In this document: one piece after another, positions 10,999 to 59,903 of the stretch
Position numbering within the stretch: the stretch's first letter is position 1
Layout of the letters: every line of letters begins with the position of its first letter
Virus record (IMG/VR): IMGVR_UViG_3300029305_006397
From: a virus
Reading direction: 5' to 3' (one strand)
Length of the DNA: 64,000 nt
The notes under the pieces: model-generated
What the model saw: only the letters and a program-made list of their open reading frames with translations
The model's database searches: none
What the model was told of the DNA's origin: nothing
Translations under genes and position numbers: made by a program

Positions 10999-11466
10999 TC
11001 ACAAATAAGACCAATGATATCCTTTGGCCGTTCTTTCAGGATTATTACATGCCATCCTAATTGTTGTATGACCGCATCCAAAATGTCTCGCTGCGACTCG
11101 AACTCCATCGAAGATTTTGTTGAGTTCTATACACTTTATTTTGCGCCTGGTTTTTTGCGTCCTATTACCATAATTATTGTTATATTTTGCGGTACACCAT
11201 TCTAAATTACCTGCGCTATCATTATTTTTGCTTTCATCTTTATGATTCACATGAGGTAAGTTATTGGGATTTGGAATAAATGCAATTGCTACAAGGCGGC
11301 AAATCCTGCGGTTATACTGTTTTCCTTTATGACGAAGTGTTACTTGTCGATATCCATCGCGATCATGGCCTCCAATAAGTATGCATCCAGATTGGTTATT
11401 TCTAACTCTTCCTAAATTGGATACACTATAGATAGGAAACTCTTTTATAGTTTTCCAAATTTCCAT
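10999..11466 (-). CDS. HNH homing endonuclease (NUMOD4 plus HNH_3 type)
   Basis: YSVSNLGRVRN, DGYRQV, VNHKDESKNNDSAGNLEWCT motifs. Confidence 0.8.
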   Translation of the reverse strand: MEIWKTIKEFPIYSVSNLGRVRNNQSGCILIGGHDRDGYRQVTLRHKGKQYNRRICRLVAIAFIPNPNNLPHVNHKDESKNNDSAGNLEWCTAKYNNNYGNRTQKTRRKIKCIELNKIFDGVRVAARHFGCGHTTIRMACNNPERTAKGYHWSYL

Positions 11467-18849: not shown

Positions 18850-19234
18850 ACAGCAGAGAAGTTTAAACCTTGTGTTTTTTTAATGCGGAGCTAACGGGAC
18901 ATTGTTTCAGCTCAGGCATTTCTTCGTAACACATTACTCCTACTTCCAAAGGATGCACTTTAAGACCGTATGTCTTGCTGCTGCGCAGAGGTAGCATTTC
19001 CTCCGCTTGAACACTTTCGCAGTTCCCGGCACTAGACACTTTCGTAGTCTCCAACGCCATCGTTTGTATGCTCAATTTACTTTTACCCAGTAGCGAACTG
19101 GAGAAGGCTGAACCACCTGGCTATAAATACAACAATGGTCTAAGCGTTAGGCAGACGGTCAAGAATCTGCCCCACGGAATCGTACCGTGCCACCTGCGGT
19201 AAATAAGACGCAGGATCGAACCTCGCTTTTAGGA

Positions 19235-21627: not shown

Positions 21628-21878
21628 ATATGTAATGCCCCTGGTTGTATTAAATACATATGCATATGGATAGCTACGTCCCGCGAAGGAGTATTCGCGT
21701 GTATGCCTGACTTAAATCACGGACTCCAATTGTATTACTATGTGACGCATACTTTCGTTTTTATCCGCTATCTGGACGGGGCAGGTTAAGCGATAACCTA
21801 TGCCTTTCGACAACCCAGCCTCTAATAAGAGGCTGACGCTCATGGCCTAATGTCCTGTTTCAACTCGCCATGACGAGC

Positions 21879-45361: not shown

Positions 45362-45647
45362 AAGAACCTCCTTGTTTTTCCATCTCGGCAATCATTGCAG
45401 CTTTCATCATGCTTTTAGCCGTTTCGTTAATAACGCTTAAGACACGATCTCCATACAAGTAATAGTAGTCAAACCGATCAAAGCTCTTATGGTATTCGCC
45501 CATCGGTTCGACAAGCTCTCCATCCTTGTTTTTTATTGTGCCGAAGCTGCATAGGAACCGATTGTCATTTATCCAATAGCCGACCAAACTTCCATCAAAC
45601 GCCCTCCCATCTGCGCTGGTTACGAGTGCGCCAGCGTACAAATTCAC
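45342..45647 (-). CDS. hypothetical protein (GTG start in track, uncertain)
   Basis: tiled minus-strand ORF. Confidence 0.45.
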   Translation of the reverse strand: MNLYAGALVTSADGRAFDGSLVGYWINDNRFLCSFGTIKNKDGELVEPMGEYHKSFDRFDYYYLYGDRVLSVINETAKSMMKAAMIAEMEKQGGSYEKHSQ

Positions 45648-46014: not shown

Positions 46015-46063
46015 ACCTTCCTTCTTTTCTTTTAGCATATCGGATACTTTGGATTTTCCGATG

Positions 46064-46098
46064 TAGCATTAAAGAATCAGGAGAGGCTTTCGCCTCTC
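46064..46098 (-). terminator. possible intrinsic terminator
   Basis: GGAGAGGC-GAAA-GCCUCUCC hairpin then UGAUUCUUUAAU on minus strand. Confidence 0.4.
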
Positions 46099-46124
46099 CC
46101 TATCTCCCATCTGCGTTTATGCTG

Positions 46125-46498: not shown

Positions 46499-46588
46499 CC
46501 TACGACACAAGCGGAAGGAAAGATAGGAAGGAAGAAAACCTTCCGCTTGTCATTTCGGCTGGTTGCCGTCCAGCTCTCGTCAGGTAGG
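46499..46588 (-). ncRNA. hammerhead ribozyme, type I (HH-5)
   Basis: minus strand CCUAC-CUGACGA-G..stem II..C-GAAA-12-bp stem III-GUC/GUAGG; predicted cleavage between 46504 and 46503; UGA stop of 46580..46786 lies inside the CUGACGA core. Confidence 0.8.
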
Positions 46589-46786
46589 TGTGGTTAATTT
46601 GAATGATTTGGTAGTCAATGCTGCCAGCTTTTGTTCGCAAGCGGTGTAGCTACCTCTATAAATGGTTTTCCAGTTATAACGGCATCTGCCGCCAACAGTG
46701 TAGAATCGTCTTTCTTTGAGTTCCCATACAGGCTTCAGGTCAAAGCCAATCGTTTCAGAAATTACATATCTTGCTTTGTTAGCCAT
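46580..46786 (-). CDS. hypothetical protein
   Basis: GGAGGCAAC SD; last codons and stop overlap HH-5. Confidence 0.55.
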   Translation of the reverse strand: MANKARYVISETIGFDLKPVWELKERRFYTVGGRCRYNWKTIYRGSYTACEQKLAALTTKSFKLTTPT

Positions 46787-47022: not shown

Positions 47023-47089
47023 TCCACGACACAGCCGGAATTTTCCGACTATGTTTCGACCGGGCATCACCCGGTTCTCGTCAGGTGGA
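47023..47089 (-). ncRNA. hammerhead ribozyme, type I (HH-4)
   Basis: UCCAC-CUGACGA-G(A)ACCGGG-UGAUG-CCCGGUC-GAAA-CAUAGUCGG-AAAAUU-CCGGCUGUGUC/GUGGA; predicted cleavage between 47028 and 47027. Confidence 0.85.
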
Positions 47090-47479: not shown

Positions 47480-47575
47480 AAGTGTTTCCTCCTATCTTTC
47501 CTTATGCGTTTGGCTTTAGGGGCTTGTGACCTTATGCCTTGCCGCATTAACAGGGCTTATGCCCTGCCACTCTGC

Positions 47576-47761
47576 TTAATCTCGATTGGAAAGCTCCGTG
47601 TGATAGATATGCACACTCTGAAGGCGTCTGCTTCCAAATTTCCGTCGAAATTCCTCTTTCGCATCTTTCATGTTTGCCTTGCTACCGTTTCGATGATCGC
47701 TTACATACTCAAATTCTCCGTAATCGTGACCATCATCATAAAGCGCAATGTAGTTTTTCAT
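47576..47761 (-). CDS. hypothetical protein
   Basis: tiled minus-strand ORF, no motif. Confidence 0.55.
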   Translation of the reverse strand: MKNYIALYDDGHDYGEFEYVSDHRNGSKANMKDAKEEFRRKFGSRRLQSVHIYHTELSNRD

Positions 47762-48274: not shown

Positions 48275-48342
48275 CCCACGACGCTCTCAGGATTTTCCAT
48301 CAAGCGTTTCGGTTGCTAACCGGGCAGCCATCATCAGGTGGG
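48275..48342 (-). ncRNA. hammerhead ribozyme, type I (HH-3)
   Basis: CCCAC-CUGAUGA-U-stem II-GAAA-CGCU..AGCGUC/GUGGG; predicted cleavage between 48280 and 48279; stem II pairing less regular. Confidence 0.7.
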
Positions 48343-48949: not shown

Positions 48950-49015
48950 CCCACGACAGGCCAGCTCAAGGCCAGCCTGTTTCGGCTCGTTGTCAACTCG
49001 CCATCGTCAGGTGGG
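48950..49015 (-). ncRNA. hammerhead ribozyme, type I (HH-2)
   Basis: CCCAC-CUGACGA-U-GGC(GA)GUU-GAC-AAC(GA)GCC-GAAA-CAGGCUGGCC..GGCCUGUC/GUGGG; predicted cleavage between 48955 and 48954. Confidence 0.75.
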
Positions 49016-49482: not shown

Positions 49483-49589
49483 TGTAAAATTCCCCTTCCT
49501 ATCTTTCCAAATGATTGACAGGAAGGGGCAAACTATGATATATTTCTGTATAGGAAGGGCGGAAGGAAATTCCCTCCACCCCCATGCGG

Positions 49590-49673
49590 TTAGATTTCGT
49601 CCGGGTTATCCGTGGCGCGAATAATCCCATCAGACCACATCCAGCCGTATTTAGTCCGATACAGGGCTTTCAT
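49590..49673 (-). CDS. possible 27-aa micro-protein
   Basis: own translation MKALYRTKYGWMWSDGIIRATDNPDEI; leader AAAGATAGGAAGGAGG upstream. Confidence 0.3.
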   Translation of the reverse strand: MKALYRTKYGWMWSDGIIRATDNPDEI

Positions 49674-49699
49674 GGCGGTTGTCCTCCTTCCTATCTTTT

Positions 49700-49734
49700 T
49701 ATAAAAAGCGGTCTTGTGTTGGTAGCACAAGGCC
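49700..49734 (-). terminator. possible intrinsic terminator or attenuator
   Basis: GGCCUUGUG-CUACCAA-CACAAGACC then GCUUUUUAU on minus strand. Confidence 0.4.
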
Positions 49735-49958
49735 GTTTTTATCTTTTAAAGCCGTTTTTTCTACGATACGGCAAAACGCTTGACCCATGCTATATGGGAA
49801 TGAATCGGGGTTCAAGGGATTGCCCCGGTCGCCTCCAGCCGTGTTCTTACATGCCGCTGGACACAGGTAGCCTGCATAATCATCTCATTCTCCGGCTACA
49901 GAGTTTTGCGCGGTTTCGATAGACGCACATTTATTGGCGGTTGCTATCGGGAATGGTT

Positions 49959-50020
49959 AACCCAGACCAGCCCATGTGGGCGTGGTTTCGTCGCAATTTT
50001 CAGCGACTCGTCAGTGGGTT
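49959..50020 (-). ncRNA. hammerhead ribozyme, type I (HH-1)
   Basis: AACCCA-CUGACGA-GUCGC-UGAAAAUU-GCGAC-GAAA-CCA(C)GCCC-ACAU-GGGCUGGUC/UGGGUU; predicted cleavage between 49965 and 49964; overlaps stop of 50011..50208. Confidence 0.85.
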
Positions 50021-50208
50021 TCAGGGTATTCCATTGCTATGGCTCTGACGGCTTCAATATCCGTCAACATTCCTCTTTCATATACGCGCAAAATATTTTC
50101 TATGCGTGTTTTTCTTAATTCTTTGATAGACGTTAACATTAACGTATTTTCTGCATCTGTCTGAAGCATATCTTGCGCAAACTCATGCACATAGCGTTTT
50201 CTTCTCAT
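50011..50208 (-). CDS. hypothetical protein
   Basis: last codons and UGA lie in HH-1 stem I and core. Confidence 0.55.
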   Translation of the reverse strand: MRRKRYVHEFAQDMLQTDAENTLMLTSIKELRKTRIENILRVYERGMLTDIEAVRAIAMEYPETH

Positions 50209-50230: not shown

Positions 50231-50298
50231 CCATACCCACGCCCCGGCAGGGCGTGACGCTCACGGCTTAAATGGCTTTTTATAGTCGCCGTGACGAC
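50231..50298 (-). ncRNA. pistol ribozyme (P-2)
   Basis: GUCG-UCACGGC-GAC-UAUAAAAAG-CCAU-UUAA-GCCGUGA-GCG-UCACGCCC-UGCCG-GGGCGUGG-GU-AUGG; loop/GCCGUGA pseudoknot and CCAU/AUGG helix; predicted G/U cleavage between 50236 and 50235. Confidence 0.75.
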
Positions 50299-50610
50299 TC
50301 AGACAATTATGCAGCGTTTGAACGGATTTTCGCAGGGGTCGCAACCGAAACCGAAATTTTCTCCGTATATATCGATATACTGAAGTCCAGCGAATTTGCC
50401 GTTCTGAATGGTTTTTAACTCCATTGTAGCGCGGCGCATAGCCTGTTTTGCCTGTTTAATGGTTACGTCGTCGATATTGTAGAATCTGTTTAGCTTGTTT
50501 TGAATTTTATTCAAGAAATTCATTGCAAGGTCATTTGTAACATTCTTTTTATCGGACTCCATGAAACAGTCAAACCCGTATGCACGAAGATAAAAACCCT
50601 GTTTTTTCAT
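50299..50610 (-). CDS. hypothetical protein
   Basis: stop abuts pistol P-2. Confidence 0.55.
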   Translation of the reverse strand: MKKQGFYLRAYGFDCFMESDKKNVTNDLAMNFLNKIQNKLNRFYNIDDVTIKQAKQAMRRATMELKTIQNGKFAGLQYIDIYGENFGFGCDPCENPFKRCIIV

Positions 50611-50633: not shown

Positions 50634-50698
50634 TTGAACCCGCCCCAAACGGGGCGACGCTTTGGGCCTAATCAACTATTTAAAGTCGCCCAAACGAC
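50634..50698 (-). ncRNA. pistol ribozyme (P-1)
   Basis: GUCG-UUUGGGC-GAC-UUUAAAUAG-UUGA-UUAG-GCCCAAA-GCG-UCGCCCC-GUUU-GGGGCGG-GU-UCAA, near-identical in layout to the published pistol consensus; predicted G/U cleavage between 50639 and 50638. Confidence 0.85.
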
Positions 50699-50955
50699 TA
50701 AACGCGCATTACATTGTCAAGATAAATGCGCATTGCACCCTTACGAATATATGCCCGACCTGCCGTCGAATAGTGGACTTTATGACGATGAAAACCCACA
50801 TATCCTTCAGGGTTAACCCATGCCGCAATATAATCGCATTCGAATTTATCGCCGTCGTCGGGTTCCCAAAGTGCAACGCCGAAACAGTTGGAAAAATGGC
50901 AAACGCCAACCGGGGCAATATTAGAATAACGCTTGTAAAGTGCTACATTTTTCAT
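50698..50955 (-). CDS. hypothetical protein
   Basis: stop codon G is the first nt of pistol P-1. Confidence 0.55.
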   Translation of the reverse strand: MKNVALYKRYSNIAPVGVCHFSNCFGVALWEPDDGDKFECDYIAAWVNPEGYVGFHRHKVHYSTAGRAYIRKGAMRIYLDNVMRV

Positions 50956-50989: not shown

Positions 50990-51044
50990 CACCCGACGCC
51001 CGGCAGGGCGTTTCGTCTTAATTTTCAAAGACTCTTCAGGGGCG
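50990..51044 (-). ncRNA. hammerhead ribozyme, type I (HH-6)
   Basis: CGCCC-CUGAAGA-GUCUU-UGAAAAUU-AAGAC-GAAA-CGCCC-UGCC-GGGCGUC/GGGUG; predicted cleavage between 50995 and 50994. Confidence 0.9.
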
Positions 51045-51047
51045 TTA

Positions 51048-51368
51048 TTATCTCAAGTTGTCGTTATATGCAATATCCCTGTTTTTGATTGCAATTTCGA
51101 TTCGCTTTTTGCTAACGTCGCCGCCGAAAATGTGACGGGCGTATTCGCGCAAAAACTCATAGAGATATTTTGCGGTTGTATTGGAGTAACACCAATTCCG
51201 ACCCAAAGTCAACGCCGCCGCGCCCTGCGCGTCATAATCAACGATTGCAATAACGCTGTCATAAGACTGGAAAATAACAGCATTATTGGAGTGAATGATA
51301 AACTGGTTTGCAACGGGGCGACCACTTCGGGGGGATACCATGTTCCTAACACTTGCATATTTCATCAT
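51048..51368 (-). CDS. hypothetical protein (first gene of the ribozyme-punctuated operon)
   Basis: GGAAGGTG SD; conserved motif copy 27 nt upstream. Confidence 0.6.
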   Translation of the reverse strand: MMKYASVRNMVSPRSGRPVANQFIIHSNNAVIFQSYDSVIAIVDYDAQGAAALTLGRNWCYSNTTAKYLYEFLREYARHIFGGDVSKKRIEIAIKNRDIAYNDNLR

Positions 51369-59570: not shown

Positions 59571-59903
59571 TTATGTTATCTATTTCCCAACATACTGTCA
59601 TGCGTGGGTGGAATAAGAAGAGACGGGCGTTTTCGGTCGGCATAAACCGAAGTTTGGCATTTGAGGTCAAATGAGTTTGATGAATGCAATCCCGTGCTGC
59701 TATGCGGTATTTGCAGGAGAACAACAGGGGTTTGCGTATAACCACAAGGCAGCTAGGTACAATCCGAAAGAAAAACGGTTATAAAGGGCGTCCCGCCACC
59801 TATATCCCAAGTGTGGAACGATAAAGCAGGTGTTTCGCTGCCTATAAATGCGAAATTTAATCAGCTCCGTGTTGGATATTTTGACATGCGGAGCATTTTA
59901 TAT

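Follow-up and report, generated by a model that had tools for sequence, protein, structure and literature searches.

Predicted self-cleaving ribozymes packed against the stop codons of small genes in a phage operon

In the phage operon described here, ribozymes of three self-cleaving classes lie between small genes, and at several of these junctions the stop codon of the upstream gene is at the same time part of the ribozyme that follows it. A preliminary description of the sequence had proposed that a terminating ribosome would occupy stem I or the core, so that translation and self-cleavage could be mutually exclusive or coupled. The locus thus raises the question of whether a stop codon inside a ribozyme is a dedicated device or a by-product of the way in which such operons are packed.

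The window, by which we mean the whole 64,000-nucleotide stretch of DNA that was analyzed, is the minus strand of G000:C1:18185-82184, from a 146,162-bp IMG/VR virus record with direct terminal repeats. The genes at ~45–52 kb are on its minus strand, and a single small-gene operon there carries six type-I hammerheads, two pistols and one twister (Table 1). All nine of these ribozymes occupy the spacers that separate small ORFs, and an independent gene caller predicts the same ORFs. At gathering thresholds, Rfam finds three pistols, a type-P5 twister, RAGATH-36, drum RNAs and ~22 tRNAs in the window. Both operon pistols are full-length matches to RF02679 (model positions 1–68, comprising P1, P2, P3 and the AUAAA linker). 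The hammerheads come from a descriptor search, which returned six complete type-I copies on the minus strand.

Table 1. Ribozymes, adjoining ORFs and other structured RNAs of the window, the operon being listed in its direction of transcription. R1 is the hammerhead covariance model described in the text.
Feature	Position	Strand	Evidence and relation to stop codon
106-aa ORF	51048..51368	-	Tandem UAA UAA at its end, the second one adjoining stem I of HH1
HH1, type-I hammerhead	50990..51044	-	Core C at 51039; R1 71.8 bits, E 1e-19
85-aa ORF (phrog_17101)	50698..50955	-	UAG stop 50700-50698; its A and G are the first two nt of pistol P1
Pistol ribozyme 1	50634..50699	-	Rfam RF02679, 68.4 bits (gathering score 34.5)
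103-aa ORF	50299..50610	-	UGA stop 50301-50299; A50299 is the first nt of pistol P1
Pistol ribozyme 2	50231..50299	-	Rfam RF02679, 67.9 bits (gathering score 34.5)
65-aa ORF	50011..50208	-	Ends ...GAA ACC CAC UGA; protein P0001, on 13 contigs
HH2, type-I hammerhead	49959..50020	-	Core C at 50014; R1 67.8 bits, E 1.9e-18; fold z -4.1
HH3, type-I hammerhead	48950..49015	-	Core C at 49010; UAA stop of 153-aa ORF (49023-49021) 5 nt ahead of stem I; R1 E 5e-3
HH4, type-I hammerhead	48275..48342	-	Core C at 48337; UAA stop of 67-aa ORF (48346-48344) 1 nt ahead of stem I; R1 E 5e-5
61-aa ORF	47576..47761	-	Last A of UAA stop is the first twister model position, adjoining the first helix
Type-P5 twister	47517..47576	-	Rfam RF02684, 50.9 bits (gathering score 37.6), model positions 1–58
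HH5, type-I hammerhead	47023..47089	-	Core C at 47084; UAA stop of 53-aa ORF (47095-47093) 3 nt ahead of stem I; R1 E 6e-5
68-aa ORF	46580..46786	-	AGGAGG Shine-Dalgarno; ends ...ACC CCU ACC UGA
HH6, type-I hammerhead	46499..46588	-	Core C at 46583; descriptor search; fold; retained in variant L239
Third pistol	21809-21878	-	Rfam; inside a tRNA array, no ORF upstream
RAGATH-36 and drum RNAs	19031-19192, 59675-59782	-, +	Rfam; within or beside the phage's two tRNA arrays

Assignment to the type-I class was made on the core CUGANGA...GAAA, a U-H cleavage dinucleotide and the correct order of helices from the stem I 5′ strand onward. At all six sites the core is complete, the cleavage triplet is GUC and stem I is 5–6 bp long, and among the six the sequence of stem I varies with its complementarity retained. 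The Rfam hammerhead models gave nothing at E≤1 on five of the six copies and a weak RAGATH-1 match on HH1; because they miss these five, the descriptor search was used instead, together with our own covariance model (R1), built solely from 71 hammerheads of other phages in IMG/VR (alignment A1), in which stems I and II covary. R1 recovers HH1 through HH5 (Table 1) and gives no match to HH6 at E≤10, probably because of the 44-nt stem-loop III of that copy. The minimum-energy fold of HH6 is the expected three-way junction (z -3.6). In a 93%-identical variant contig, L239, its core and stems I and II are without any change; the differences are confined to loop III, stem III and the spacer, and one of them, U15.2 to C, turns a stem III U-G pair into C-G.

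Two of the hammerheads, HH6 and HH2, have the stop codon in the core itself. The UGA of the 68-aa ORF (46582-46580) is the U-G-A of the HH6 core CUGACGA, which is opened by C46583. Stem I of HH6 is formed by CCUAC (46588-46584) and GUAGG (46503-46499), the latter just after the GUC cleavage triplet; the core is followed by stem II with a bulged A, then by GAAA and a stem III of 2+12 bp with a 20-nt loop, and cleavage is predicted after C46504. The end of this ORF does encode stem I, as originally described, although two codons (CCU ACC) rather than three span stem I and the core C3. In the same way the UGA of the 65-aa ORF (50013-50011) is the core UGA of HH2, and the C-terminal ...ETH of the protein is encoded by stem I. 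HH2 has stem I AACCCA (50020-50015)/UGGGUU, core CUGACGAG and loop II UGAAAAUU, with a predicted cut after C49965. All four overlaps between stop and ribozyme given in the preliminary description, at the ORFs ending at 46580, 50011, 50698 and 50299, are present, and the overlap of coding with predicted catalytic RNA is a physical one.

We also note two features in the neighborhood of these hammerheads. Between the HH2 cleavage site and the 153-aa gene lie ~480 nt (49483-49958, minus strand) without a credible ORF. In stem-loop III of HH6 (46515-46538, minus strand) the pyrimidine-rich loop and 3′ strand, UUCUUCCUUCCUAUCUUUCCUUCC, is the reverse complement of a purine-rich leader, GGAAAGAUAGGAGGAA, with exact 15-nt matches; this leader precedes several starts of the operon (after the twister at ~47500, after HH3 at ~48930 and after HH4 at ~48245). 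The UUCUUCCUUCCUAUCUUUCCUUCC sequence may form an anti-SD-like loop on the 5′ cleavage product, or it may be a mere inverted duplication of the leader.

Stem I of HH1, HH3, HH4 and HH5 begins 0–5 nt past the upstream stop. A 141-aa ORF running across HH5 was rejected as a gene; the downstream gene begins at AUG 46986, and the longer frame is an artefact of choosing the longest start. At 46035-46123 (minus strand) there is in addition an 89-nt element, 1 nt past the UAA stop of a 115-aa ORF, with a very stable predicted fold (z -4.9). Its closing helix (AGCAUA/UAUGCU), inner GCA...UAAUGC pair and GGGAGAGGC-GAAA-GCCUCUCC hairpin give it a twister-like look, and it has no Rfam match at E≤1; going by the modeled fold, it may be a tenth ribozyme placed against a stop codon. 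A 12-nt box of this element, CGCAGAUGGGAG, is found again at 45604-45615, within the 3′-terminal part of the following ORF, and no stable fold is predicted there.

Close relatives of the 5.6-kb operon were not found: blastn against GenBank phages gave just one 82-nt match, no related loci were found for the 103-aa protein, and word-based protein searches with the 65-aa and 68-aa products yielded nothing beyond the query itself or a 97% variant. The ribozyme families were therefore surveyed across IMG/VR with four DNA patterns, namely hammerhead subtype 1 (loop II UGAAAAUU, like HH1 and HH2), hammerhead subtype 2 (stem I CCAC and a 20-nt stem-loop II, like HH3–5), pistol and twister-P5. Each ribozyme was paired with the longest upstream ORF of at least 40 aa on the same strand, and near-duplicates were removed; this is a heuristic that uses no gene caller, and some of its ORF calls are ambiguous in GC-rich contigs. 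The survey comprises 337 non-redundant junctions, 72 with subtype 1 and 80 with subtype 2 hammerheads, 85 with pistols and 100 with twister-P5.

In all four sets the stop codon is typically close to the ribozyme, the first helix following the stop at a median distance of 0, 2, 1 and 1 nt, respectively. The stop overlaps the ribozyme in 120 of the 337 junctions (36%), lies 0–3 nt upstream of it in 115 (34%) and 4–9 nt upstream in 40 (12%), and is at least 10 nt away in 62 (18%). Measured from the core C, hammerhead stops taken together fall at -13 to -5, +1, and +11 to +18. The most used starts are -9 (14 junctions), -8 (12), +1 (8), -5 (6) and +12 (4) in subtype 1, and -8 (12), +1 (10), -10 (9), -9 (7) and +11 to +18 (7 together) in subtype 2. 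The core UGA thus serves as the stop in 8/72 (11%) and 10/80 (12.5%) of the junctions, and a second UGA is present in loop II UGAAAAUU. Pistols (offsets -4 in 10, -7 in 7, +5 in 7, +15 in 6) and twisters (-5 in 18, -4 in 18, -2 in 11, +6 in 13) have the stop either flush with the first helix or at a stop-like triplet within their own consensus, these triplets being the UGA of the P1 loop (+5) and the UAA of the AUAAA linker (+15) in the pistol, and the UGA of GCAGAGUGA (+6) in the twister.

The stop-in-core arrangement is therefore not conserved among relatives, and the finding that was named as speaking against the original proposal, ribozymes at variable distances from the stop, is in part observed. 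Close homologues do hold their register, as common descent predicts, with slips of 1–3 nt in an A-run. Two of the six hammerheads of the window use the core stop, compared with 11–12% in the survey, and this excess could be chance or lineage-specific. Taken alone, the stop-in-core overlap is ordinary, one of the less used registers within a widespread layout.

Adjacency to the stop is nonetheless far from random, the stop-in-core register being only one of several found. The ribozyme lies nearer to the stop in 51 of 55 hammerhead spacers, its 5′ gap being smaller than the space left on the 3′ side after 15 nt are allowed for the Shine-Dalgarno sequence (p = 2e-11); the median 5′ gap is 0 nt, and the median distance from cleavage site to next start is 39 nt (IQR 34–51). 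Of the 76 ORFs that extend into a ribozyme, 68 terminate ahead of its cut site, where random reading frames would give 53.7 (Poisson-binomial P = 1.5e-5); the eight that run past it are mostly ambiguous ORFs. A cleaved message would thus almost never be without its stop codon. The ribozyme-free junctions of the same operon are 1–15 nt long, and the tight packing on the 5′ side of the ribozymes matches this general compaction.

In subtype 1 hammerheads an A occupies position -7, directly 5′ of the 6-bp stem I, in 80 of 83 sequences, and positions -8 to -6 are A-rich; UAA stops reuse these positions of the A-run, which subtype 2 does not have. The out-of-frame U(A/G)A triplets that occur 5′ of stem I where the stop is in the core were considered as a conserved element and rejected, the conserved part being the A-run of subtype 1; once the used stops are removed, T frequencies there are near the AT-rich background. 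We also note that in UGAAAAUU hammerheads the 3′ strand of stem I is mostly followed by AA, as it is in all six copies of the window, and A-A mismatches flanking stem I may cap a deliberately short helix.

The genes themselves were compared as well. An exhaustive HMMER search with the 65-aa protein found 18 remote homologues of 50–74 aa, which can be aligned as far as a conserved ...EAVxxIA motif, beyond which come tails of 0–15 residues; the protein of the window carries seven additional residues, MEYPETH, whose codons continue through stem I as far as the core UGA. Homologous phages had been suggested as the place to look for conservation of the arrangement, and behind none of the eight homologue loci fetched was a ribozyme detected (Rfam E≤0.1, R1 E≤1); at six of the eight the next gene starts between 4 nt before and 27 nt after the stop. 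Two remote homologues of this protein are followed by ~110-nt, GC-rich, helix-rich spacers (L245:881-989 and L249:358-470) to which neither Rfam (E≤0.1) nor R1 gives a match; these could be terminators or uncatalogued structured RNAs.

The 85-aa protein (phrog_17101) offers a different comparison. A pistol comes after its gene in this phage, and a hammerhead (11392-11459, minus strand) after that of an 85-aa homologue in another (L090); the two C-termini are ...RIYLDNVMRV and ...RIYLDEVMKVA, and the ribozyme abuts the stop in both phages. Together with the ribozyme-free homologues of the 65-aa gene, this indicates that gene and ribozyme are no fixed pair, and from these sequences ribozyme classes appear to be interchangeable at one junction.

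We favor the view, with a probability of roughly 0.68, that the ribozymes serve as modules for processing the transcript between cistrons, each packed tightly up to a stop, and that a stop in the core is a tolerated by-product of this packing and not a dedicated device. Each ribozyme would be packed between the stop of one small gene and a ~30–40-nt leader that carries the Shine-Dalgarno sequence of the next. We infer cleavage in vivo and its effects on the mRNAs from this anatomy: self-cleavage 3′ of every operon stop would cut the polycistronic transcript into pieces with a complete ORF each. The upstream piece would keep its ORF and stop and end in a folded ribozyme body, and the downstream piece would begin with a 5′-OH and the 5–6-nt 3′ strand of stem I (or the P3 strand), followed by an unstructured purine-rich leader with the Shine-Dalgarno sequence. 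Since no intervening sequence would be required ahead of the first helix, the ribozymes can lie flush against the stop. An ORF end that drifted into a ribozyme would be caught before the cleavage site by the stop-like triplets of the consensus, and these built-in triplets would make the overlap of coding and ribozyme sequence harmless. One observation goes against compaction alone, in that the 3′ leader is ~18 nt longer than the Shine-Dalgarno sequence needs, yet the 5′ gap is zero; stop adjacency may therefore have a further, unrecognized benefit.

The alternative raised at the outset is that the ribozymes are gated by translation. Here placement of the stop at the first helix would have been selected, the helicase of the terminating ribosome would melt stem I or P1, and translation of the upstream gene would delay, reset or license cleavage, coupling mRNA processing to translation. 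Ribosomes unwind mRNA several nucleotides 3′ of the A-site codon, so that a terminating ribosome would have to open stem I or P1 in ~80% of junctions. In 82% of the 337 junctions the stop ends inside the first helix or no more than 9 nt away from it, and by textbook geometry these 82% fall in the ribosome-unwound stretch; from the same geometry, a ribosome paused on an overlapping stop would have stem I or P1 within its mRNA channel and so occlude it. The position of the ribozyme on the stop side of the spacer (51/55) and the identical layout in three unrelated ribozyme classes also agree with gating.

Several observations nevertheless make such gating unlikely. The fixed register that is expected of a translation-gated cis-regulatory RNA is not seen, and in 18% of junctions the gap is 10 nt or more; the 65-aa gene has homologues without a detectable ribozyme; and the third pistol sits in a tRNA array without any ORF, which indicates that these ribozymes need no stop codon. 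The ribozyme-free junctions of the operon are equally tight, so that compaction predicts the same picture as gating does. The upstream coding sequence was also examined as a source of competing structure, by comparing the pairing probability of stem I with native and with shuffled upstream 90 nt for the six hammerheads. No consistent signal emerged, the native sequences falling at percentiles from 3% to 97% of the shuffled ones, with pairing lower for the native sequence in HH1, higher in HH2, HH4 and HH6, and no different in HH3 and HH5; given this inconsistency over the six hammerheads, upstream competitor structures were dropped as evidence either way. A more specific form of the idea, that the stop-flush placement of all three classes is selected and the terminating ribosome acts as a helicase-gate or chaperone that times cleavage, making up a translation-dependent mRNA-processing switch in wide use among phages, seems to us if anything slightly less probable. 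If it were true, the transcript would come apart into its cistrons only once ribosomes had finished translating the upstream gene, or in the intervals between successive rounds.

It is also possible, and in our judgment improbable, that the arrangement protects 3′ ends. A folded ribozyme body and a 2′,3′-cyclic phosphate would then stand right behind the ribosome-protected ORF, leaving no naked 3′ UTR for endonucleases or 3′ exonucleases. The cleavage sites of type-I hammerheads and pistols are near their 3′ ends, so that stems II and III stay upstream of the cut, and the gaps are minimal on the 5′ side alone, both of which speak for such protection. The layout is, however, equally expected from compaction, and the twister-P5 cleavage site is internal, which from what is known of the family would leave less structure on the 5′ product.

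Finally, the small ORFs are short (53–153 aa), and Pfam and PHROG matches are absent for most of them, but that they should be artefacts, with stop codons that are meaningless triplets in non-coding RNA, is very hard to believe: each has a strong Shine-Dalgarno sequence at the right spacing, the 65-aa protein has its 18 remote homologues, the 85-aa and 106-aa proteins match PHROGs, the substitutions in the 68-aa ORF of the 93%-identical variant are mostly synonymous, and the JGI gene calls on a near-identical contig, L240, independently give the same ORF series (106, 85, 103, 65, 153, 57, 58, 67, 81, 65, 61, 71, 53, 63, 68 and 111 aa), the 68-aa ORF being called in both L240 and L239.

Regarding the ribozymes as processing modules packed against stops, we can compare the operon with known arrangements. 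As in other compact phage junctions, where a Shine-Dalgarno sequence lies inside the upstream ORF or the genes overlap at AUGA or UAAUG, an RNA element overlaps the end of an ORF; unlike those, the overlapping element here is a predicted catalytic RNA whose conserved nucleotides supply the stop. The pistols and the twister are ordinary members of their classes, and it is their context, not the class, that brings P1 or the first helix into overlap with the stop. A discontinuous hammerhead in the 3′ UTR of mammalian Clec2 mRNAs, reportedly described by Martick et al. in 2008, is said to have a segment that begins right after the stop codon and to act on the 3′ end of the mRNA. It differs from the present case in being eukaryotic and split and in lowering expression of its own mRNA, with no polycistronic processing. 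In RiboJ-type insulators and twister expression platforms, self-cleavage separates expression units and gives defined 5′-OH leaders or 3′ ends. The natural operon resembles such engineered ribozyme insulators, although the synthetic parts use spacers and have no coding overlap.

The literature places the operon among phage systems already described. Twister expression platforms appear there as 3′-UTR ribozyme switches (ref. 148 of PMC6765202), and the pistol and type-P5 twister classes are reported near hammerheads and RAGATH motifs (Weinberg et al. 2015 and Roth et al. 2014, as cited in PMC6765202). Clustered hammerheads cut polycistronic prophage RNAs in vitro (Perreault 2011, PMC3088659), and the reviews state that ribozymes flank small ORFs of unknown function and call their biological role open (PMC6155905, PMC6765202). 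As with those clustered hammerheads, several ribozymes lie here in one operon of small, poorly conserved genes, the setting for which mRNA processing was proposed; unlike those examples (PMC3088659), three ribozyme classes alternate in one operon here and the stop register is quantified. The position of the stop codon relative to the ribozyme is not mentioned in the searchable text of PMC3088659, PMC6155905 or PMC6765202, and full-text searches of the accessible literature for a ribozyme overlapping a stop codon returned none.

Overall, the locus belongs to a type of phage ribozyme operon that is already known, is unexceptional within it, and serves as an example of a general rule of packing. 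Three ribozyme classes follow the same architecture, in which the stop codon is at or inside the 5′ edge of the ribozyme, the predicted cut lies 3′ of the stop, and ~39 nt of leader separate the cut from the next start. This rule fits a role as cistron separators for phage self-cleaving ribozymes.
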